Shown here: piece after piece, positions 5,159 through 36,909 of the stretch
Layout of the letters: every line of letters starts with the position of its first letter
Numbering within the stretch: the first letter of the stretch is position 1
Sequence record: PX853108.1
Reading direction: 5' to 3' (one strand)
Length of the DNA: 64,000 nucleotides
Source: a phage
Translations under genes and position numbers: made by a program
Notes under the pieces: model-generated
The model's input: the letters and a program-made list of their open reading frames with translations, nothing else
Told to the model about the DNA's origin: nothing
Database searches by the model: none

Positions 5159-5869
5159 ATGCAGAAATTATCGGAAGTATATCGTGGCTTGGCACTAAGT
5201 ACCTTGAAGGGTACTGGTGCAGTCACTGATGACAGATTAGGCATTGAACCAGATAGCAAGCCTGAAATATTGGCAGCTATTAATGAAGGGCTGGTACGAC
5301 TACATAGTCGTTTCCCTTTAAGGACTAATAGCTGCATTGTGGAGATGAAGGAAGGTCGTACTGATTATCCCCTTCAATCCAGATATGCTTACTCCAAATT
5401 TATTAAGCCTACTCTTGAGATTCAATACCCATATATCATGGATGGGTTCATGAAACCTTTCCAGGATGATGTCATTAAAATCTTAAATGTGTTTGATAAC
5501 TCAGGGAATCGACGTAGACTGAACGACGATTCAGACCCTCATGCAATCTTTACTCCTCGGCCTGATACTATTCAGTGTATGCGACCTCGACACTTCGAGG
5601 CACTTAACGTAACTTATCAAGCTAAGCACCCTGTACTTACGGGTGATGAAGAACAGGAAGTTGATTTAGCTGATACGCTAATGACGGCACTTCATAACTG
5701 GGTGGGTTATCGTTACCACACTGGTTTGAATACTCCGGAAGCTAATGCTAAGGCAGCAGAGTATCTGCAAACATATGAAAGCATCTGTGGTGAGGTTGTT
5801 GATTACGACCTGGCTAATGGAAGTATTTCAATTACCGAAACTAAATTTGAACAACGAGGATGGCGATGA
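5159..5869 (+). CDS. Virion structural protein (tail-associated by position)
   Basis: 236 aa ORF with RBS GAGGAA; lies between terminase and the tailspike-like genes. Confidence 0.3.
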   Translation: MQKLSEVYRGLALSTLKGTGAVTDDRLGIEPDSKPEILAAINEGLVRLHSRFPLRTNSCIVEMKEGRTDYPLQSRYAYSKFIKPTLEIQYPYIMDGFMKPFQDDVIKILNVFDNSGNRRRLNDDSDPHAIFTPRPDTIQCMRPRHFEALNVTYQAKHPVLTGDEEQEVDLADTLMTALHNWVGYRYHTGLNTPEANAKAAEYLQTYESICGEVVDYDLANGSISITETKFEQRGWR

Positions 5870-8547
5870 ACGCACATACCCCCTTTGATGCAAAACAGGA
5901 TTGGACCAATCCTTACTGCCAAAACAGTTCCAATGACCCAATGGTAGATGCATTACTTGGTAATGCTTACCATGTGGTTCGTACTGTTTACTGTAACTTG
6001 GGTAACCTTAAACTTTTGTATGATTTCCTGAACCAGTATGGAATGGTTCTTGGTGTACAGTCAGAGGCAGAACTTAAAGCATTAACTACTAAAGCTAAGT
6101 ATGCACGTATCTATGGCTTTTCTCGTACAGGTGACCGGCAGGTAACTGACTACCTGTATGTGGAAGGTGATCGTACAGGCATTATCCCTGATGACCCAAA
6201 GGCAACAGGTTCATGGATTACTGTTGCTACTTCTGGTTCCACCGGTGGTGGTACTTCTTCCAGCGAAGGTGCTTACATTCCTTGGGTATACAGCAATGGT
6301 TCCGCTACTGGTGGGGAAACCACAATCAACGTACCAGATGGTACGGTAGGTGTGCCTTTCATTATTGTTAATGGCGACATGCAGTATGTAGGCCGTGGCT
6401 TTGAGTTTAATATTGACAGTCTGTCTGTAACTCTGGCTCAACCTTTAGAAGAAGGGGATGAAGTAGTATTCCTTCTGACAGGAGTGCCTGCTGTACCAGA
6501 TAATCCTAACGTTAATGACTGGGTTCAGATTAACTGGTTATACAACAATGGTGCTGCTGTAGGTGGTGAACAGGTTATTACTATTCCTTACACCTTCCAG
6601 TCTATTCCGGCTGTGTATAAGAATGGACTACGTTTGTATAAAGGATTAACTACTGAGTCCTATACTGCTGACCCAGATAACCAACGTATTTTTCTTACCG
6701 AACCACTGACAACCAATGACCGTCTGATTGTACAGATTGGAGGGGAAACACAGGTACTGGAAACATCAGACCATACTATTCAGGAAGTTGCTCGTGCAGC
6801 TAACGTTAAGGATAGTGAGGTAATTCTTAGTACTGACGTTACTCAATTCTTAAATGGTAAGAAGATTGTTTATTCTGTTAGTGAGCAGAAGGCTTATGGG
6901 TTACCTTCTTTGCCTACCAATGTGTACATTCAATCCGTAGAGAACGGTAAGCTTACATACTCCCCTGGAGCCGTGGAAGTAGATTTAGTTCCTATCCCTG
7001 GTTCCTCTGAAGAATTAAAAAATAGTTTAATATCTGATACTGGGGCTGCCATAGTGAGCACTAGTTCTGGTGCAACTGTACAAGCAGAACTTGATAATAT
7101 TACAGAGAAATTGGGGGACTCTTACCCAAATATAAGAGGTAATATTAATACACCTGCAACTGGGTATGTATTCCAACCATATACCCGCTATTACGGCGAC
7201 CATGACATTCGATACATTGGGGGCGGTAATCCTAAGTCAACTAAGCGATTTAAAAAAGATGGGCATGAAACAATAACTCTTACTGGGATTTCTACGACGG
7301 CATCTAATCCTCCAACCATATCGGTGGATACAGTTGCATATGTAAACCCTGCTAGTGCTGACCCTGATGATAGAACCTTCCCTGCAAGTATTACCTTTAA
7401 CGGCCTAGCCTTTGTAGGTGATGATGATGAGACGGGGGAAGTTGGATTAACCATCCTTCAGGGTCAGAATTTCCAGATTCAAGATTGTGGTTTTAGTAAG
7501 ACTAAACTGGCAACTTGGTTTGTAGATGTATGGATGACCAGTGTGAGTAATTCCACCTTCTTTGGGCAGGTTCGCCATGATGGAGGTACTAGCTGTTTCT
7601 ACACTAACTGTTATGCCACTGTACATGATGCCTCAGTACCACTAGGTGCATACAGAATTTCTAATATTCAGTATGGTAATATGACCTCTTGTGCCTCGGA
7701 TGGGACGATAAATGGTGCTTACTGGTTTAACGGTAATAATGGATTAACAGTTAATAACTGTGGGTCAGAAGTTCCTACCACAATGGACAGGAACTATGGT
7801 ACTGCTGCGCACTTTGAAAAAAGTAATGAGATGGTACTTACCAATTTTTATACTTTACCCGCAGAAGGTACTAACATGCTCATATCAGTAAAAGATGATA
7901 ATGAGTTAGTATTCAATAACATGATGGTATACGGTAGCCCTGATAGATACAGCCGGGATTTCTGGTTTACAGGCACGAACAATAACTTGATTATTAATGG
8001 GGGCATCTTTGGTAATCGAGGAGACTTCCCACGTATTGCCACAGACCATGCAGGAAACACTGTAATTTACAATGCTGTTAATGGTAACTCATACATATGG
8101 AAAACTAAAACAGCGGCCATCACTGCTGTATGGGAACCAAAGTACCTTTCACAGACATTGGATACTACATCTGATGTCGTATTTACGAACAGCGGTCCTG
8201 TAACAGGAGGAACACGAGATATTAAATTCACTAAGAATGGTAATACTGCTACTGTTGAATTTGATATTACTATTCCAAGTGTTTCTGGTGCAGTGGGACA
8301 ACTTCGTATAAATGGTTTGCCTTATGCTGCTGCTCAACAAGCTAGTGGTAGTGTAGCTATAGCCATTGGTTTAGGTACGGGTGTTGGTAATATTTCTTGT
8401 GCCGTTATCAGAAATGGGACTGAGATACTGTTCTATAAATCTACAACAGCAGGCGGTGTATCATCCGCACTTGTGCCATCAGACCTAACCGATGGATGCA
8501 GCCTTCGCGGTAGTATTACCTACTCCTGTGTATCCGATTGGGATTAA
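5860..8547 (+). CDS. Tail fibre / tailspike-like protein with beta-helix-type C-terminal region
   Basis: 895 aa; Gly/Thr/Asn-rich repetitive C-terminal half typical of parallel beta-helix receptor-binding proteins; internal ~70 aa module (nt ~6781-7015) homologous to the N-terminus of the next gene. Alternative start ATG 5866. Confidence 0.45.
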   Translation: MAMNAHTPFDAKQDWTNPYCQNSSNDPMVDALLGNAYHVVRTVYCNLGNLKLLYDFLNQYGMVLGVQSEAELKALTTKAKYARIYGFSRTGDRQVTDYLYVEGDRTGIIPDDPKATGSWITVATSGSTGGGTSSSEGAYIPWVYSNGSATGGETTINVPDGTVGVPFIIVNGDMQYVGRGFEFNIDSLSVTLAQPLEEGDEVVFLLTGVPAVPDNPNVNDWVQINWLYNNGAAVGGEQVITIPYTFQSIPAVYKNGLRLYKGLTTESYTADPDNQRIFLTEPLTTNDRLIVQIGGETQVLETSDHTIQEVARAANVKDSEVILSTDVTQFLNGKKIVYSVSEQKAYGLPSLPTNVYIQSVENGKLTYSPGAVEVDLVPIPGSSEELKNSLISDTGAAIVSTSSGATVQAELDNITEKLGDSYPNIRGNINTPATGYVFQPYTRYYGDHDIRYIGGGNPKSTKRFKKDGHETITLTGISTTASNPPTISVDTVAYVNPASADPDDRTFPASITFNGLAFVGDDDETGEVGLTILQGQNFQIQDCGFSKTKLATWFVDVWMTSVSNSTFFGQVRHDGGTSCFYTNCYATVHDASVPLGAYRISNIQYGNMTSCASDGTINGAYWFNGNNGLTVNNCGSEVPTTMDRNYGTAAHFEKSNEMVLTNFYTLPAEGTNMLISVKDDNELVFNNMMVYGSPDRYSRDFWFTGTNNNLIINGGIFGNRGDFPRIATDHAGNTVIYNAVNGNSYIWKTKTAAITAVWEPKYLSQTLDTTSDVVFTNSGPVTGGTRDIKFTKNGNTATVEFDITIPSVSGAVGQLRINGLPYAAAQQASGSVAIAIGLGTGVGNISCAVIRNGTEILFYKSTTAGGVSSALVPSDLTDGCSLRGSITYSCVSDWD

Positions 8548-8601
8548 TATTTATATAGCCTCCGTAACTGGAGGCTTACTTAGAAAAACAAAGAGGTTGT
8601 T

Positions 8602-10485
8602 ATGAACGAAATGTTCTCACAAGGTGGTAAAGGTTCAACTGGTATTCTTACCAATAAGCAAGCCATTGCCCGTAAGTTTGGTGTTAAGCAGAATGAAGTA
8701 GTCTACTTTTCTGTAGGTGTAGACTTAGGTGGATACAAAGTCATTTATGATAAGACTACTCAACGTGCTTACTCATTGCCCGTACTTCCAGTAGGAACCA
8801 CTGCTGTAAGTCTCAGTGAGCAGGCAGTCCTGGTTCATTCAGCAGGTACAGTTGATTTGGGTGAACTGGCTGCTACACGTAGGGAATTCGTAAGCCTGTC
8901 TGATACGTTTGCTACTGGTTTGGTAGTGAATACTCGAAATGAGATTCTGATGCATGATGGTATAGGTTATACCTATTTAGGTGCTCTACCTGTAACTATT
9001 GCCGCAGGAACTAACCCTGTCGGTAATTCTGACTGGAAGGCTCAGACAGACCCATATTTACGCACAGACTTGGCTAGTTCTGATGTAAACAAAGGCGCAT
9101 CGATTATCAACACTACTTCTGGTTTAAACGTTCAGGAGTCGCTAAACACCCTGAGGTTATCGGCTACCGCGAGTTCTATTTCGGCCAATCTGGCTTTAGG
9201 CTCCGCAAAAGTTATTGACTCCGTATCCAGTGCCGATTCTTTTATCCTCCCATCCTTCGCTACGTTAGAAGGGGGAGATAATTTCTTAACCGGCTTCATA
9301 GGAACCTCATACCAGAAAAACAAAACTATTCGTAAATCAAGTAATACAACTGTTACGTTAACAAACCAAGACCCCAGCGCTGGGAGTCAATCCGTGGACG
9401 CGGTTGTATACCAAGACCCGGCATGGCCAGGTGGCGCTGTATTTCCTCAAAAATCGGCATTAAAGCATATTACTATTGAGGGTAACTCTGCTGCTAACCC
9501 TAGTCAGGCCGGTTTTTTTGTATTACAAGGCGGAGTAGTTGACATTGAGAATGTGGATTTCATCAACTGCACCTATGCGATATGGGCTAAAGATATCTGG
9601 CAAAGCCGCATCTCCAGAGTATTCTCCAACAACGGAAAGATTCGCCTTGATAACGGTACGTCTGTTGTACTAACAGGATGTGGGTTGGCTTCTGCCGATA
9701 CTACAAGAACAGGCGCATTTGATCTTACGGGCATGAAGTATTCAACGCTTATTGGTTGTACATCAGACCATACTACCAATACTGCCTATTCATTCGATGC
9801 TTGTGAAGGAATTGTGCTGGACGCTTGCGGATGTGAGGGGGCCAACACCACAACAGCTAATTCTGGAACGGCTCTGGCTTTTAAAGATAACAATCATAAT
9901 ATAGTGGTCAACGCTTTCACATGTTTCCCGGTAGCTGACCAAGGCCCCGCTTTGATATCATTCGGTAGTAACAACCAGGTAACCCTAAACTCGTTCGAGG
10001 TTATACCAGGAATTACATATAATGGGGACATATACCTTTATGGGGCTAATTCTCATATCACTATAAACGGGGGACGCTTTGGTTCAGACGGCAATGCTAT
10101 GCCTATTGTAACGGCTTCGGCTAATGCCATTGGCTCCACTATAACATATCATCACCGCAGGGGTATTACGTATACATACACAGTAACAGCCGCAGGAATT
10201 GTAACTCCGGTACAACATTTCCGCCCTATTGTGTCTGCTGTTATTAACTCTGATGGTACTGTTAGAAGCGGTTTCGGCGTTAATAATGTAACTAAAAATA
10301 GCACAGGTTCTTACACTATTAATTTCACTAGTGAGATTGCCACGGGATATGCGATCCAACATTTATCCTCATTTGGATTTGTGCAGGTGAGCGTTTTCGA
10401 CTCAACAACACTAACGGTATTATTCCTTGACCCAAGCAAAACACCAACTGATACGGACTTCTCGGTTAATATAGCTGGCTGGTAA
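8602..10485 (+). CDS. Tailspike-like protein, pectate-lyase-like beta-helix (putative depolymerase)
   Basis: 627 aa; RBS AAGAGG; N-terminal module (nt ~8665-8866) shared with gene 5860-8547; Asn/Cys-rich repeats (ITIEGNSAA...VDIENVDFINCTYAIWAK...) suggest a right-handed beta-helix. Confidence 0.45.
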   Translation: MNEMFSQGGKGSTGILTNKQAIARKFGVKQNEVVYFSVGVDLGGYKVIYDKTTQRAYSLPVLPVGTTAVSLSEQAVLVHSAGTVDLGELAATRREFVSLSDTFATGLVVNTRNEILMHDGIGYTYLGALPVTIAAGTNPVGNSDWKAQTDPYLRTDLASSDVNKGASIINTTSGLNVQESLNTLRLSATASSISANLALGSAKVIDSVSSADSFILPSFATLEGGDNFLTGFIGTSYQKNKTIRKSSNTTVTLTNQDPSAGSQSVDAVVYQDPAWPGGAVFPQKSALKHITIEGNSAANPSQAGFFVLQGGVVDIENVDFINCTYAIWAKDIWQSRISRVFSNNGKIRLDNGTSVVLTGCGLASADTTRTGAFDLTGMKYSTLIGCTSDHTTNTAYSFDACEGIVLDACGCEGANTTTANSGTALAFKDNNHNIVVNAFTCFPVADQGPALISFGSNNQVTLNSFEVIPGITYNGDIYLYGANSHITINGGRFGSDGNAMPIVTASANAIGSTITYHHRRGITYTYTVTAAGIVTPVQHFRPIVSAVINSDGTVRSGFGVNNVTKNSTGSYTINFTSEIATGYAIQHLSSFGFVQVSVFDSTTLTVLFLDPSKTPTDTDFSVNIAGW

Positions 10486-10490
10486 AACTA

Positions 10491-10515
10491 AGGCCCCAAA
10501 GGGGGCCTTTCTTGT
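10491..10515 (+). terminator. Intrinsic terminator after the tailspike gene
   Basis: Stem AGGCCCC/GGGGCCT with AAAG loop followed by TTTCTTGT, 6 nt after the stop codon. Confidence 0.6.
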
Positions 10516-10741
10516 ATAGAGTTTACTGTTTGCATTACCCTAATAGATACTGCTGTTAGGGTGATTACTTGTCCGGATATGTTAAACATATCTAGCTGAA
10601 TACCATCCACCATGAATGGGTCTGTTGAACCAAGTGTGTATGTAGCTAATACATTGTCTCTGTTAGCAATGTCCGTACCTTGTACCTTAACACTAACATC
10701 TGAACATACTACTGTAGTTCCATTGGTTCATCTTGTTTGTG

Positions 10742-10777
10742 TTGCCATTCCCTTACCGTGCCAGCACTTCTTATAAT
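10742..10777 (+). promoter_or_regulatory. Candidate late promoter (perfect -10 TATAAT, no convincing -35)
   Basis: TATAAT at 10772-10777 in a ~380 bp ORF-free gap about 115 nt upstream of the lysis cassette; a missing -35 fits N4-type late promoters, which depend on the phage SSB. Confidence 0.2.
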
Positions 10778-10892
10778 AGTTCCTAGGGCAGACACTATGT
10801 CTGGATGTACCTCATCATACTAAGTATTATCTAATGGTCATCTTATGATATGACCCTATTGGGGTTCCTAACTACACAACTACGGTAATATT

Positions 10893-11222
10893 ATGAATGA
10901 ATCGGGTGAACTGCTTCTAGTCAGACTGGAGGAACGATTGAAGACTCTGTTTGATAACCAGGCAAGAGACAGACAGGACCGTGAGAAACTGGAGGAAACT
11001 CTGGTAGAACTACGGGATTCAATCAATGACATAGGTAATAGATTAAAGAATGTGGAGGATAGCTTAGCTAAGAATGAACCTACTATTGAAGAGTTCATCA
11101 CCATTAAGCATAAAGTTGTTGGTGCTGGAATTTTTGGTAAGTGGGTATGGGCTGGGGCAGGTGCAATTATCGGTGTATTAGCTGCTGCAAGACGGGAGAT
11201 ATTCGCATGGTTCGCAGGCTGA
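10893..11222 (+). CDS. Membrane-anchored coiled-coil protein (lysis-associated; antiholin/holin-like)
   Basis: 109 aa; charged coiled-coil N-terminus and one C-terminal hydrophobic Gly/Ala-rich segment (VVGAGIFGKWVWAGAGAIIGVLAAA); first gene of the lysis cluster. Confidence 0.35.
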   Translation: MNESGELLLVRLEERLKTLFDNQARDRQDREKLEETLVELRDSINDIGNRLKNVEDSLAKNEPTIEEFITIKHKVVGAGIFGKWVWAGAGAIIGVLAAARREIFAWFAG

Positions 11223-11467
11223 GAAGAAAAGTAGAGTTAGTACCCAACTGGAAAAGGTGCTGGAAGTGGGCATCCATTCAGATTAGTACCGTTGGCTTAA
11301 TTTTATTTTCTGCCATAGATATTATCCAACCAATGATGACAGGATTACCTCGTCACATCCTGGAAGATATTCCCCATGGTTCCAATATTGCAATTGCACT
11401 GTTTGCCTTGAACATCATAGGCAGATTAATACGATTCCGACCAAAGGAAGATTCTCATGAAAGCTAA
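11207..11467 (+). CDS. Holin candidate (two predicted TM segments)
   Basis: ORF 11141-11467 trimmed to ATG 11207, which overlaps the upstream stop; two hydrophobic segments; stop overlaps the endolysin start (ATGA). Confidence 0.4.
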   Translation: MVRRLRRKVELVPNWKRCWKWASIQISTVGLILFSAIDIIQPMMTGLPRHILEDIPHGSNIAIALFALNIIGRLIRFRPKEDSHES

Positions 11468-12092
11468 ACAGAAACTTGCTGCGAAAGGTGGTGCAGTGGG
11501 AGGAGTTGTCGCTGCTATCCTGGGGGCAGTGTTTTATATGGAAGGGGGATATGTAAACAATCCTCGTGACCCAGGTGGTGAAACTAATCATGGTATTACC
11601 CAAGCAGTAGCTAAGACCCACAAAGAAGTTCTGGCTACTGAATACGGTTGGGATGGTTCTATGAAAGGTTTATCTAAAGAGATGGCTGCTGAGATATACA
11701 TTGATGACTACGTACTTAAGCCTAACTTCGTAGCCTTCGCTGATATATCTCCTGCTGTAACACATAAGCTGGTAGATGCTGGTGTTAACACTGGTGTAAC
11801 CCGTCCTGCTAAGTGGTTGCAATTATCTCTTAATGAGATGTCCCGTAATGGCAAAGACTACCCTAAAATACAGGTTGATGGTAAAGTCGGTACAAGTACT
11901 GTTAATGCATATAAAGCATTACAGAAAAAACGAGGCAAAGTTGAAGCATGTAAAGTAATGATTAAGTTACTTGATGCTAAACAACTGAACCACTACACCT
12001 CATTAAACATGCCAGACTTTACGTATGGTTGGGTAGCTAACCGAATAGGCAATGTGCCACTGGAGGCATGTAATGAAGATGCTAATCTCTAA
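11457..12092 (+). CDS. SAR-type endolysin, N-acetylmuramidase (GH108-like)
   Basis: 211 aa; N-terminal weak Gly/Ala-rich hydrophobic segment (signal-anchor-release-like) followed by EGGYVNNPRDPGGETNHGIT, the EGGY catalytic motif of GH108 muramidases; RBS AAAGGAAG. Confidence 0.75.
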   Translation: MKAKQKLAAKGGAVGGVVAAILGAVFYMEGGYVNNPRDPGGETNHGITQAVAKTHKEVLATEYGWDGSMKGLSKEMAAEIYIDDYVLKPNFVAFADISPAVTHKLVDAGVNTGVTRPAKWLQLSLNEMSRNGKDYPKIQVDGKVGTSTVNAYKALQKKRGKVEACKVMIKLLDAKQLNHYTSLNMPDFTYGWVANRIGNVPLEACNEDANL

Positions 12093-12579
12093 AGGTTGGC
12101 CTTATCTTCTGGTGGTGGTCCTAGGGGCCACCATTTACTTTTGGGGTAATTCCAATGGACAGTCTACTGTTCAAAAGAAGTGGGATGACCAAAAGGTTGA
12201 AGATCAGAAGGCAATGCAAAAACTACAGGACAAATACAATGCTCTCCAAAGAAACCATAGTTATGAAGTCGGGTTACTCACTTCCCGGTTGCAGACGGCT
12301 GAGAGTAATTACGCAAGCGAGCTTGCTCGCGTTAGCAATGATTACGACAGCCGGATGCAACAGTCTGAAAGACGAGCATCGGTATATAAACGTCAAGCCG
12401 AAGCCGGAACCTTTGAGTGCAGAAGTCTTGCAAGCCATGCAGCCAGACTCGACAACAGTCTTGAAGAAGGCAGACGTTTGGTTGAAGAACTCCGGGCAAC
12501 TGTTAGACTCCGTGACAGCCAACTAATTGAGTTGGGTAAACAGATTCAGGCTGACCGTAAACTTTTTGAACAGGAATAA
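12073..12579 (+). CDS. i-spanin (Rz-like)
   Basis: ORF 12052-12579 trimmed to ATG 12073 (GGAGG at 6 nt); N-terminal TM helix then long charged coiled-coil; directly follows the endolysin. Confidence 0.55.
12263..12526 (+). CDS. o-spanin (Rz1-like), embedded in the +1 frame of the i-spanin gene
   Basis: Within ORF 12155-12526: hydrophobic leader ending in lipobox-like TTAGC, then proline-rich mature region ([11 protein letters not shown]); start codon uncertain (12239 or 12263). Confidence 0.45.
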   Translation: MKSGYSLPGCRRLRVITQASLLALAMITTAGCNSLKDEHRYINVKPKPEPLSAEVLQAMQPDSTTVLKKADVWLKNSGQLLDSVTAN

Positions 12580-12581
12580 CT

Positions 12582-14852
12582 ATGGAACACCAAGACACTT
12601 TTAAGCCTTTACCAGACCCGGCTCAATCAGAGAAGTTAACGGACTGGAAGAAGGAACCAAGTATCCAATTGCTGAAAGGTGATTTGGAATCGGCTAAACC
12701 TGCTCACGATGCAATCATGGCTCAGATTCGTGAGTGGAATGATTTAATGGAAGTTAAGGGTAAGGCTAAACCCCCAAAGGTTAAAGGACGTTCGCAAGTC
12801 CAACCTAGACTGGTTCGCCGTCAGGCAGAATGGCGTTATGCACCATTGTCTGAACCATTCCTCTCATCCAATAAACTCTTTAAGGTAACTCCTGTTACTT
12901 TTGAAGATGAGTTAGCTGCACGTCAGAATGAATTAGTTCTTAACTACCAATTCCGTACCCAGCTTAATAAAGTAAAACTAGTGGATGATTACGTACACAG
13001 TGTCGTAGATGACGGTACTGGTATTGCTCGTATTGGTTGGGAACGTAAGACTGTTAAGATTAAAACAGAAACCCCAGTCTTCCAGTTGTATCCAATTGAG
13101 AACCAGGAACAAGCAGATATTCTTCAGCAGGCTTTACAGCTTCAGGCAGAGAATCCTCGTGAGTATGATGAAACAATGCCGGAAGATATTAAGGAAGCTG
13201 TTAACTACTTCAATGAAACTGGAGAAGCTACCTATGCAATCCAGACAGGTGTTACTGAAGTAGAAGTTGAAAAAGCATTGGTTAACAGACCTACTGTTGA
13301 AATGCTTAATCCTAATAACGTAGTCATTGACCCAAGCTGTAATGGTGATTTGGATAAAGCTCTGTATGCAGTTATCTCATTTGAGACTTGCAAAGCAGAC
13401 CTCATGAAGAACAAGGACCGTTATCACAACCTGGATAAGATTGACTGGGAAAGTTCTAGTCCTATGACTGACCCAGACCATGAAAGTAAAACTCCTGGTG
13501 ACTTCCAGTTTAAGGATGCACTTCGTAAGAAAGTCATTGCTTATGAATACTGGGGATTCTACGACATTAATGATGATGGTTCACTGGAACCAATTGTTGC
13601 TACCTGGATTGGTTCTACCCTTATTCGTATGGAGAAGAACCCATTCCCTGACGGTAAGTTACCGTTGGTAGTTGTTCCTTACATGCCCCGTAAACGCGAA
13701 CTCTACGGTGAAGCTGATGCTGAACTGTTAGGAGATAACCAAGCAATTCTTGGTGCAACTATGCGTGGGATGATTGACCTATTAGGTAGAAGTGCAAACG
13801 GTCAACGTGGTTATCCTAAAGGGATGTTAGATACCCTGAACCGACGTCGATATGATGATGGACAAGACTATGAGTACAACCCAATGCAGGGCAATCCTAG
13901 TCAGGCCATTATGGAGCACAAGTTCCCGGAATTACCTCAGTCAGCAATAGTAATGACTCAGATGCAGAACCAGGAAGCAGAAGCACTAACTGGTGTTAAA
14001 GCATTCTCTGGTGGTGTAACTGGTGCAGCTTACGGAGATGTGGCTGCTGGTATTCGTGGTGCACTTGATGCAGCATCCAAACGTGAGATGGCAATTCTTC
14101 GCCGATTAGCTAAAGGTATGGCAGACATTGGTACTAAGATTTGTGCAATGAATGCTGTGTTCTTATCTGAGAAAGAAGTAGTACGTATTACTAATGAACA
14201 GTATGTAGAAATTAACCGAGAAGACCTTAAAGGTAATTTCGATATTGAGGTTGATATTAATACTGCTGAAATTGATAACCAGAAATCCCAGGACTTGAGC
14301 TTCATGGTTCAAACATTAGGTAATACAGTTGACCAGACTATTACGTTATCTCTTGTAGCTAAGATTGCAGAACTTAAACGTATGCCAGACCTTGCACATG
14401 AATTACGTACCTGGAAACCACAACCAGACCCTATGGAAGAACAGCTTAAGCAATTAGCAATTCAGAAAGCACAGCTTGAGAATGAAGAGTTGAAAAGTAA
14501 GATTGCACTTAATAATGCTAAGGCTAAAGAAACTATTTCTAGTGGTGACCTTAAAGACCTGGATTATCTGGAACAAGAATCTGGTACTAAACATGCTCGT
14601 GATATGGAAAAACAAAAAGCACAATCTCAAGGAAACCAGAACCTTCAAATAACTAAGGCGTTGACAACACCTACTAAAGAAGGTGAAACTACCCCCAACA
14701 TATCTGCTGCTGTCGGATATAACGCTTTGACTAACGGGAACTCTTTACAGGAACGTGACTTAGCTGCACAGCAAGACCCGACTTATTCACTAAGTTCCCA
14801 GTATTATGACCCTAGCCAAGACCCAGCATCGGCTCTTGGTATGAACTTATAA
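12582..14852 (+). CDS. Portal protein
   Basis: 756 aa; RBS AGGAA; size and position (lysis cassette upstream, scaffold and capsid downstream) match N4-type portal. Confidence 0.65.
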
Positions 14853-36497: not shown

Positions 36498-36754
36498 TAG
36501 TAGCTTTAACGCAGCTAACGAGGCTTGTATGAGTGCTAGGATTTGTAACTCCCAGCATATCCCCACCGTTTTAGCTGACGGCAAACAGAGATTGATAGTC
36601 TCAGAGGATACTTTACTCAGGCGAGTATTATAGTCTACTCATACTCACACTACCCTAACGGGTAGTATGTTTGCAATACCTAGAGTGCCGGACTGTCTCA
36701 CCGGCATTGTCTTTAGAGTGCAATGCAATCAGGACTATGTTCTCTATTAATGAG

Positions 36755-36828
36755 TACCCACTACTGGATTTGAACCAGTGACCTTCCGATTATTAGTCGG
36801 TTGCTTTCCCCGTCTAAGCTAAGTGGGC
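36755..36828 (-). tRNA. tRNA, hand-folded anticodon AAT (Ile?); no encoded CCA
   Basis: Minus-strand sequence GCCCACT-TA-GCTT-AGACGGGGA-AAGC-A-ACCGA-CTAATAA-TCGGA-AGGTC-ACTGG-TTCAAAT-CCAGT-AGTGGGT-A: 7-bp acceptor (G1-U72), D arm, T arm with TTCAAAT loop, 7-nt anticodon loop with U33 and A37. A34 is unusual. Confidence 0.7.
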
Positions 36829-36833
36829 ATAAA

Positions 36834-36909
36834 TGGTTACCCGGACAGGATTCGAACCTGTGTCCTAGTTGGTTTACTAGTGGGGCTTTACCACTAAGCC
36901 TACCGGGTA
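36834..36909 (-). tRNA. tRNA-like gene with encoded CCA but non-canonical anticodon arm
   Basis: Minus-strand TACCCGG-TA-GGCT-TAGTGGTAA-AGCC ... ACAGG-TTCGAAT-CCTGT-CCGGGTA-A-CCA: perfect acceptor, D and T arms; the anticodon region CCACTAGTAAACCAACTAGG folds only as a 5-bp stem with 6-nt loop or 4-bp stem with 8-nt loop. Confidence 0.6.

Follow-up and report, generated by a model that had tools for sequence, protein, structure and literature searches.

Among the lysis systems described so far, that of coliphage N4 is the closest to the genes reported here. A 2025-26 preprint (Awuah et al., bioRxiv 10.1101/2025.11.12.688109) shows by experiment that the N4 proteins comprise a pinholin and a lysis regulator together with a SAR endolysin and a bimolecular spanin of the embedded type; as early as 2015, the N4 muramidase had been termed a SAR endolysin. 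In those experiments, gp61 complemented endolysin defects with a canonical holin and with a pinholin alike, and charge substitutions in its N-terminal domain led to rapid lysis, while gp63 complemented the S21 pinholin only and gp60/gp60a complemented lambda Rz/Rz1 (bioRxiv 10.1101/2025.11.12.688109). The N-acetylmuramidase activity of purified gp61 is credited there to earlier work (Stojkovic & Rothman-Denes 2007, as cited in bioRxiv 10.1101/2025.11.12.688109).

Organization of the lysis cassette

We analyzed a window of 64,000 nucleotides of phage DNA (sequence record PX853108.1), in which every gene and gene segment described below lies on the + strand. Between 10800 and 12700, the DNA is ~96% identical to many Gamaleyavirus records, the gene order is that of Bp4, G7C and N4, and the five cassette proteins share 58-71% identity with N4 gp63, gp62, gp61, gp60 and gp60a. 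These genes are very probably the late lysis genes of a Gamaleyavirus, a G7C-like, N4-like podophage of E. coli, orthologous to N4 gp63-gp62-gp61-gp60/gp60a, with SAR, pinholin and spanin working assigned by homology. The organization of such a cassette and the roles of its genes are already known, through the N4 experiments and the deposited G7C-like phages. For the copy in the PX853108.1 phage, we show how the genes are arranged and which orthologues, domains and fold they have, as well as their conservation and the dual-coding constraint.

A sequence-only reading had placed an endolysin and an embedded spanin pair at 11457-12579, and family matches, conservation and N4 homology bear out both these coordinates and the three assignments. 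Its extent for the cassette held for these genes but missed two genes upstream, at 10893-11222 and 11207-11467. Our own calls of transmembrane domains (TMDs) and lipoboxes are predictions from composition and pattern checks, together with the TMHMM and LipoP notes left by depositors on homologues. When 10300-12800 was scanned for promoters and terminators, the + strand showed no signal beyond shuffled expectation; the sole plausible terminator in that range is a hairpin at 10490-10509, 3′ of the tail-spike gene, and the terminator-like hairpins within the cassette genes are probably incidental.

The gp63-like and gp62-like genes

The first gene of the cassette (10893..11222) encodes a 109-aa protein with 69% identity to N4 gp63 and a match to phrog_5211 (E = 4e-50). 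It comprises a cytoplasmic helical N-terminal part, a ‘Receiver’ stretch (PTIEEFITIKHK) that is identical in N4 gp63, and a C-terminal Gly/Ala-rich TMD (residues ~80-97). By homology, this product would be a pinholin, partnering a SAR endolysin within one cassette. N4 gp63 has an alternative start at Met17, whereas the matching codon in the PX853108.1 phage is TTG.

The next gene (11207..11467) encodes 86 aa from ATG 11207, although its frame is open upstream to GTG 11141 and ATG 11147. Its product is a gp62-like, holin-like lysis regulator candidate with 66% identity to N4 gp62, matching Pfam DUF7940 (53 bits, cutoff 27) and phrog_1356 ‘holin’ (E = 8e-30). Its two predicted TMDs correspond to hydrophobic segments at residues 23-40 and 58-75.

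A GH108 endolysin with a SAR-type N-terminus

The endolysin gene (11457..12092) encodes a 211-aa protein of N-acetylmuramidase type with 71% identity to N4 gp61. The GH108 assignment made from the sequence alone stands, as both Pfam matches exceed the gathering score: GH108 (PF05838) at residues 24-113 with 72.3 bits (cutoff 21.2), and PG_binding_3 (PF09374) at residues 117-196 with 31.8 bits (cutoff 24.6). The EGGY motif, E29 to Y32 (11541..11552), directly abuts a hydrophobic segment, and E29 and G31 are invariant in an alignment of 64 sequences; E29 is the putative catalytic Glu. The modelled fold agrees, since the AF2 model (pLDDT 94.7) matched 6v40, 6v3z, 7dnp and 2ikb in Foldseek with probability 1.00. 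The closest solved folds are TtsA (6v40) and Sen1395 (6v3z), the latter also found by phmmer (E = 6e-27).

Residues 1-28 (11457..11540) form, by composition and a helix predicted by AF2 at 12-29, a SAR-type N-terminal segment. It consists of a basic MKAKQKLAAK with four Lys in residues 1-10, followed by the uncharged 18-residue stretch GGAVGGVVAAILGAVFYM (residues 11-28), and then EGGY. Gly and Ala make up 50% of this stretch, compared with 44% in P1 Lyz, 56% in phage 21 R and 22% in the TMD of the i-spanin. A crude 18-residue Hessa sum was +2.0 for the segment and +3.5 for the i-spanin TMD, and fell between −0.2 and +0.3 for N4 gp61, P1 Lyz and R21. A crude hydrophobicity scan on the Hessa and Kyte-Doolittle scales did not set the segment apart from the cassette's other TMDs. 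Of the weakly hydrophobic, Gly/Ala-rich segment that had been noticed before EGGY, the richness was confirmed and matches known SAR domains; its hydrophobicity was not separable from that of the other TMDs by the crude sum. Because the scan does not discriminate, the SAR reading draws on Gly/Ala content and homology.

Since residues 1-25 are masked in tblastn for their low complexity, conservation of the N-terminus was read from protein sets. In all 102 sequences that match EGG[Y/F/W] among the 120 best homologues, this motif is preceded by a basic part and then by at least 14 uncharged residues; the other 18 carry variant motifs, with a similar N-terminus by eye. Taken together, the Gly/Ala-rich segment, its conservation and the homology to N4 gp61 support the prediction of a SAR-type endolysin. 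The homologue in phage Philippe is named ‘SAR endolysin N-acetylmuramidase’ at NCBI.

Two other readings of the segment have to be weighed against the SAR reading. It might be a cleavable Sec signal peptide that leaves the muramidase free and active in the periplasm, as proposed for the endolysin of Oenococcus phage fOg44. The n-region and h-region layout is indeed signal-peptide-like, and many homologues, N4 included, carry a small-x-small motif such as V-F-A directly before V-EGGY; in the PX853108.1 phage and the G7C clade, however, the corresponding residues are V-F-Y-M, so that no small residue stands at −1 beside the motif. A cut there would also delete conserved GH108 residues, as the Pfam match begins at residue 24. 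In N4, moreover, negative charge in the segment made lysis faster instead of blocking export, and gp61 is reported as membrane-associated and as requiring the pinholin for synchronous lysis (bioRxiv 10.1101/2025.11.12.688109). On the missing −1 residue, the domain boundary and the N4 genetics, we rejected cleavage as very unlikely.

A release step would be absent if the segment were a stable signal anchor, with the enzyme permanently tethered and either acting in place or needing a large-hole holin. This would fit the crude hydrophobicity of residues 11-28, which resembles that of the i-spanin TMD, but not their Gly/Ala content, which is that of validated SAR domains and more than double that of the same TMD. 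Slow lysis independent of a holin is caused by the N4 homologue, which also functions with a pinholin, whose holes are impassable to proteins (bioRxiv 10.1101/2025.11.12.688109). In addition, a permanently embedded helix with the catalytic Glu at its end would keep the active site against the bilayer. Given the Gly/Ala content, the pinholin-compatible lysis of N4 and the position of the Glu, a permanent anchor was rejected as very unlikely, and we retain the SAR reading.

The boundaries of the catalytic domain bear on how such an enzyme might be held inactive. The hydrophobic stretch already contains the first residue of the GH108 Pfam match (residue 24) and that of the Sen1395 alignment (residue 23), which suggests that the membrane helix contributes its final ~6-7 residues to the GH108 fold. 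As the N-terminal segment contains no Cys, caging by a P1-type disulfide is inapplicable. From these alignment boundaries we infer a refolding or inactivation step: the helix that ends at the catalytic Glu would be the first helix of the GH108 domain, its residence in the bilayer would leave the active site incomplete, and release would double as a folding switch in place of the disulfide caging of P1 Lyz. We tentatively propose, with slightly less than even confidence, that GH108 SAR endolysins are kept inactive by such a fold-specific mechanism and, given the intact gp63 ‘Receiver’ stretch, that G7C-like phages may share N4-type lysis inhibition. In the literature we found, signal-arrest-release was paired with GH108 in a general review only, and a structural demonstration of helix-held inactivation was absent for any GH108 enzyme. 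For use of the endolysin as an enzybiotic, the N-terminal membrane helix would need to be removed or accounted for.

The i-spanin and its embedded o-spanin

The i-spanin gene (12073..12579) encodes 168 aa from ATG 12073, the likely start, with GGAGG 6 nt upstream, or 166 aa from the alternative ATG 12079; the listed ORF begins at 12052. Its product shares 58% identity with N4 gp60 and matches phrog_6197 ‘Rz-like spanin’ (E = 1.8e-77). A TMD is predicted at residues ~8-25, and a single-sequence AF2 model (pLDDT 77) shows helices at 9-110 and 116-167, the two long helices being predicted to be periplasmic. The hydrophobic segment, the helices and the PHROG match all agree with the transmembrane protein recognized from the sequence alone.

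Wholly inside this gene, in the +1 frame [(12263-12073) mod 3 = 1], lies a gene for an o-spanin lipoprotein with an 87-aa precursor (12263..12526). The ORF as listed spans 12155-12526, and we place the start codon at ATG 12263, which is preceded by a weak Shine-Dalgarno (SD) sequence, with ATG 12239 as the alternative. The predicted signal peptide is long (31 residues) and ends in the lipobox T-A-G-C, followed by Asn at +2 in a PROSITE PS51257-like pattern; the codon of the lipobox Cys32 is at 12356-12358. Thr is uncommon at lipobox position −3. The mature part is 56 aa long, which is the length that the preprint gives for N4 gp60a (bioRxiv 10.1101/2025.11.12.688109), and contains no Cys besides the one predicted to be lipid-modified. 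Identity is 60% to N4 gp60a and 97% to G7C gp60′. In phage Paxi, a LipoP lipobox was reported for the homologue by its depositor.

The 87-aa product has no match in Pfam or PHROGs, so the case for its reality rests on conservation and on dual-coding analysis. A lipobox ORF occurs in the +1 frame in six further N4-like phages from five host genera; a seventh, HN04, also has the lipobox ORF, but its i-spanin is not annotated, so that the frame comparison covers the other six. The motif YINVKPK..EPLS..LQAMQP.ST..LKKAD.W..NSG.LLDSVT is conserved in the seven further phages, and the hosts spanned are Escherichia, Klebsiella, Achromobacter, Pseudomonas, Stenotrophomonas and Burkholderia. Across five diverged phages, identity at the third position of i-spanin codons reaches 0.77 where the mature o-spanin overlaps, versus 0.37, 0.41 and 0.43 elsewhere. 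The embedded frame is real and under dual-coding constraint, and a fully embedded lipoprotein ORF in the +1 frame, as first read from the letters, holds in its coordinates, frame offset, lipobox pattern and conservation.

The lack of a Pfam or PHROG match and the weak SD before ATG 12263 are what one would expect of a chance ORF, in which case the i-spanin alone would be made and the outer membrane disrupted in some other way. Chance would hardly keep the frame, the lipobox Cys and a long motif across phages of six host genera, nor raise third-position conservation so far above that outside the overlap, and co-expressed N4 gp60/gp60a complement lambda spanin defects (bioRxiv 10.1101/2025.11.12.688109). 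We therefore rejected a chance ORF, whose likelihood is close to nil, and treat the pair as a bimolecular spanin.

Proposed lysis mechanism

By homology to N4 and under the general pinholin/SAR model, the export, tethering, release and catalysis of the endolysin and the function of the spanins in the PX853108.1 phage would proceed as follows. The GH108 muramidase would be exported by Sec and kept inactive in the inner membrane, with its Gly/Ala-rich N-terminal helix, left uncleaved, as the tether; this helix would end at the catalytic Glu29 and contribute its last ~6-7 residues to the GH108 fold. Triggering of the gp63-like pinholin would depolarize the membrane, upon which the helix might exit the bilayer, the enzyme refold and the murein be degraded; some muramidase would be released stochastically, without the pinholin. 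The gp62-like protein may act as an accessory holin-like lysis regulator. The helical i-spanin, anchored in the inner membrane, and the o-spanin, an outer-membrane lipoprotein, would join in a complex that reaches across the periplasm, which could disrupt the outer membrane once the murein is gone.

Comparison with known systems

As in lambda Rz/Rz1, the i-spanin gene wholly contains, in its +1 frame, the gene of the o-spanin lipoprotein, and as in lambda Rz, an N-terminal TMD of the i-spanin is combined with two helical segments (PMC6139136). Unlike the lambda proteins, the i-spanin belongs to phrog_6197, and its lambda-related evidence consists of weak matches to other Rz-like PHROGs; the pair is further distinguished by a mature o-spanin with the lipid-modified Cys as its sole Cys. 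The main text of the spanin survey mentions neither N4 nor G7C (PMC6139136).

The soluble GH108 muramidases TtsA of Salmonella (6v40), Sen1395 (6v3z), Brucella SagA (7dnp) and the endolysin of Erwinia phage S6 share the catalytic fold and EGGY with the endolysin described here. In contrast to it, the S6 enzyme has no hydrophobic N-terminal segment; S6 and Sen1395 carry a short polar stretch before EGGY instead (e.g., VIGK-EGGY and ILGK-EGGY). With P1 Lyz and with phage 21 R and its S21 pinholin, the cassette would share its logic, namely a Sec-exported, uncleaved Gly/Ala-rich helix, exit upon depolarization and a pinholin partner. Those two enzymes, however, are T4-lysozyme-like GH24 proteins, whereas the PX853108.1 endolysin has the unrelated GH108 + PG_binding_3 fold, with the catalytic Glu directly after the helix, unlike in P1 Lyz and 21 R.

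The cassette has the same five genes as N4 in the same order, adjoining the portal gene and with overlapping gene ends, a SAR-type N-terminus that abuts EGGY and a +1-embedded o-spanin with a 56-aa mature part. It differs from N4 in belonging to the genus Gamaleyavirus, not Enquatrovirus, in having the lipobox TAGC instead of IVGC, and in lacking the proximal Met just before the h-region of the o-spanin. Because this Met of N4 is absent, the o-spanin probably carries the long signal peptide of 31 residues.

The Gamaleyavirus records are closer still. In the 25 best of them (G7C, Bp4, nithesis, PD38, St11Ph5 and others), the cassette DNA is 95-96% identical to that of PX853108.1 and differs from it by point substitutions only. 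The G7C proteins are 69-97% identical (gp61, 94%; gp60, 96%; gp60′, 97%), and gp60′ is already described in the G7C record as ‘embedded within ORF60’. Several other Gamaleyavirus records label the gp63 homologue, wrongly, a ‘tail length tape-measure protein’ or leave out the embedded o-spanin. Dozens of G7C-like phages in the databases carry a near-identical cassette, and the parts of its N4 orthologue have been tested; the relevance of the cassette lies mainly in correct annotation.

Organization of the lysis cassette and orthology with coliphage N4

Upstream of the portal gene (12582-14852, + strand, 756 aa; Pfam SU10_portal), the ORF list and sequence reveal a compact run of + strand genes encoding a gp63-like pinholin by homology (10893-11222, 109 aa), a gp62-like protein with two transmembrane domains (TMDs; 11207-11467, 86 aa), an endolysin (11457-12092, 211 aa) and an i-spanin (12073-12579, 168 aa), with an o-spanin gene (12263-12526, + strand, 87 aa) nested in the +1 frame of the last. 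Adjacent genes share 16, 11 and 20 nt of overlap, a common arrangement in co-translated lysis cassettes. A sequence-only reading had placed an endolysin and spanin pair at 11457-12579, exactly from the endolysin start through the i-spanin stop; the sole addition to it is that the pinholin and gp62-like genes also belong to the cassette.

Gene order is alike in N4, where the cassette also adjoins the portal gene, and identity to the N4 proteins is 69% for gp63, 66% for gp62, 71% for gp61, 58% for gp60 and 60% for gp60a. The cassette is thus orthologous to N4 gp63-gp60a. The DNA at 10800-12700 is ~96% identical to that of phages nithesis, Bp4, PD38, ZQ2, St11Ph5 and many others, and matches 89 records, the majority from Escherichia phages of the genus Gamaleyavirus (Schitoviridae, Enquatrovirinae).

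The tail-fibre/tail-spike module immediately upstream (5860-10892) is mosaic, with at most 34% covered by any single phage record (megablast) compared with the ~96% identity of the neighbouring cassette to many, and probably represents an exchanged receptor-binding (host-range) module. At 10490-10509 lies a terminator-like hairpin, and the ~380 nt after it contain no long ORF. On the minus strand, ARAGORN found two neighbouring tRNA genes (36754-36909), a tRNA-Ile (anticodon AAT) and one with an irregular anticodon loop.

The annotated gp63-like start, ATG 10893, has no obvious Shine-Dalgarno (SD) sequence. TTG 10938 (codon 16), with GGAGG five nt upstream (10928-10940), occupies the position of the alternative N4 gp63 start Met17; G7C has CTG and no SD there, so this feature is not kept across the genus. 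The gp63 'Receiver' stretch, PTIEEFITIKHK, is the same in the window and N4, and T65I and T71A, which cause rapid lysis in N4, fall in it (bioRxiv 10.1101/2025.11.12.688109). In the gp62-like gene, 22 more in-frame codons are open before ATG 11207 (11141-11206, to GTG 11141 / ATG 11147), overlapping the end of the gp63-like gene, where its TMD is encoded. The open stretch is likewise exactly 22 codons long and has a start codon in G7C, N4, KP8, JWAlpha and HN04 but not Paxi, and the extension, which could be a dual-start (holin/antiholin-like) motif, agrees with the alternative starts noted for N4 gp62. Several public Gamaleyavirus records call the gp63 homologue 'tail length tape-measure protein' or 'tail needle protein', and several leave out the embedded o-spanin; in Bp4, the gp63 homologue lies at 2594-2923 and the spanin is annotated only as a 225-nt fragment. 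Such mislabels and omissions are annotation errors spreading by similarity.

A probable SAR-type GH108 muramidase

The endolysin, so labelled in PHROGs, matches Pfam Glyco_hydro_108 (residues 24-113, 72.3 bits against a cutoff of 21.2) and PG_binding_3 (residues 117-196, 31.8 bits against 24.6), and its nearest solved folds are all GH108 muramidases (TtsA, 6v40; Sen1395, 6v3z; SagA, 7dnp; NMB1012), which bears out the family first assigned by eye. E29 and G31 are invariant among 64 aligned sequences. The AlphaFold2 model built from this alignment is confident (pLDDT 94.7) and gives residues 12-29 as a single helix with E29, the putative catalytic Glu, at its end.

The N-terminus reads MKAKQKLAAK GGAVGGVVAAILGAVFYM EGGY: four lysines, then 18 uncharged residues with 50% Gly+Ala, then immediately the EGGY motif. 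This design (1-2 basic residues, an uncharged Gly/Ala-rich run, EGG[Y/E/W/H]) recurs in all 120 best database homologues. The search pattern EGG[Y/F/W] fitted 102 of them, with runs of 15-21 residues in 101 and of 14 in one; the other 18 carry variant motifs on N-termini judged alike by eye. In contrast, the endolysin of Erwinia phage S6, a more distant soluble relative, lacks the hydrophobic segment and has a short polar stretch before EGGY, as does Sen1395. The Gly/Ala-rich segment proposed by the sequence-only reading stands; crude hydrophobicity sums, with reference signal-anchor-release (SAR) sequences for comparison, gave no separation from ordinary TMDs.

By analogy, these features support a SAR-type muramidase. 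The homologue P0093 of phage Philippe carries the depositor's name 'SAR endolysin N-acetylmuramidase', the N4 enzyme was already named a SAR endolysin in a 2015 genome announcement (PMC4319500), and purified N4 gp61 is a membrane-associated N-acetylmuramidase according to 2007 work as cited in bioRxiv 10.1101/2025.11.12.688109. N4 gp61 complements endolysin defects with either a large-hole holin or a pinholin, leaks slowly when alone, and acquires negative charge in its N-terminal domain in spontaneous rapid-lysis mutants (bioRxiv 10.1101/2025.11.12.688109).

A cleavable signal peptide is unlikely, as the V-F-A-type site of N4 reads V-F-Y-M in the window endolysin, cleavage would remove conserved domain residues, and N4 genetics favour the opposite reading. 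That the segment is instead a permanent membrane anchor is also unlikely, given its Gly/Ala composition and the holin-independent and pinholin-dependent behaviour of the N4 endolysin.

In the SAR-type reading, the last part of the membrane helix may at the same time form helix 1 of the catalytic domain, because the Pfam GH108 match and the Sen1395 alignment begin inside the hydrophobic stretch (residues 24 and 23, respectively).

An o-spanin gene embedded in the i-spanin gene

The i-spanin fits PHROG 6197 'Rz-like spanin' (E = 1.8e-77), with a single N-terminal hydrophobic segment (residues 8-25) and two long predicted helices (9-110 and 116-167, modelled from the single sequence with moderate confidence; pLDDT 77), in agreement with the transmembrane protein proposed earlier. 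The o-spanin ORF is shifted by one base ((12263-12073) mod 3 = 1); its start was assigned to ATG 12263, which has a weak SD, with ATG 12239 possible. The precursor has 31 residues before Cys32 in a PROSITE-type lipobox (Thr at -3, Asn at +2), and a mature part of 56 residues, as in N4 gp60a (bioRxiv 10.1101/2025.11.12.688109). The product had no match in Pfam or PHROGs. However, the ORF, the lipobox Cys and the motif YINVKPK..EPLS..LQAMQP.ST..LKKAD.W..NSG.LLDSVT are also found in G7C, N4, KP8, JWAlpha, ZC03, Paxi and HN04, in the +1 frame in the six with an annotated i-spanin, and the G7C record describes gp60' as 'embedded within ORF60'.

For five diverged phages (the window, N4, KP8, JWAlpha and Paxi), the i-spanin genes were aligned by codon and compared at the third position, which is the second position in the o-spanin frame. 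Identity was 0.77 over the mature o-spanin, versus 0.37 upstream, 0.41 over the signal peptide and 0.43 downstream of the stop. This pattern is a signature of selection on both frames and excludes a chance ORF, so that the embedded lipoprotein gene is upheld. Overall, the original observation is confirmed, and its reading as a SAR-type GH108 muramidase with an embedded spanin pair is supported.

Proposed mechanism and comparison with known systems

The analysis establishes the gene anatomy, the family membership and the fold, along with conservation, dual coding and N4 orthology, onto which a mechanism can be projected from N4 and the pinholin/SAR model. The muramidase would be exported by Sec and held by its uncleaved helix. 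It would be inactive there because this helix, which runs up to Glu29 and contains the beginning of the catalytic domain, would be buried in the bilayer. Depolarisation by the gp63-like pinholin would free it to degrade murein, after which the i-spanin/o-spanin complex would break the outer membrane.

In N4, gp60-gp63 are enough for rapid lysis (Ramsey laboratory preprint, bioRxiv 10.1101/2025.11.12.688109); gp63 complements only the S21 pinholin, gp62 is a non-essential holin-like regulator, and gp60/gp60a complement lambda Rz/Rz1 (same preprint). Embedded, overlapped and separated spanin genes are textbook architectures (PMC6139136). The lysis system as a whole is already known, and the phage lineage already sequenced. 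The lipid-modified Cys is the sole Cys of the mature o-spanin, and the i-spanin has one, in the linker between its helices (also in G7C, N4, KP8 and Paxi; absent in JWAlpha); any covalent linkage between the window spanins must therefore differ from that of lambda Rz/Rz1.
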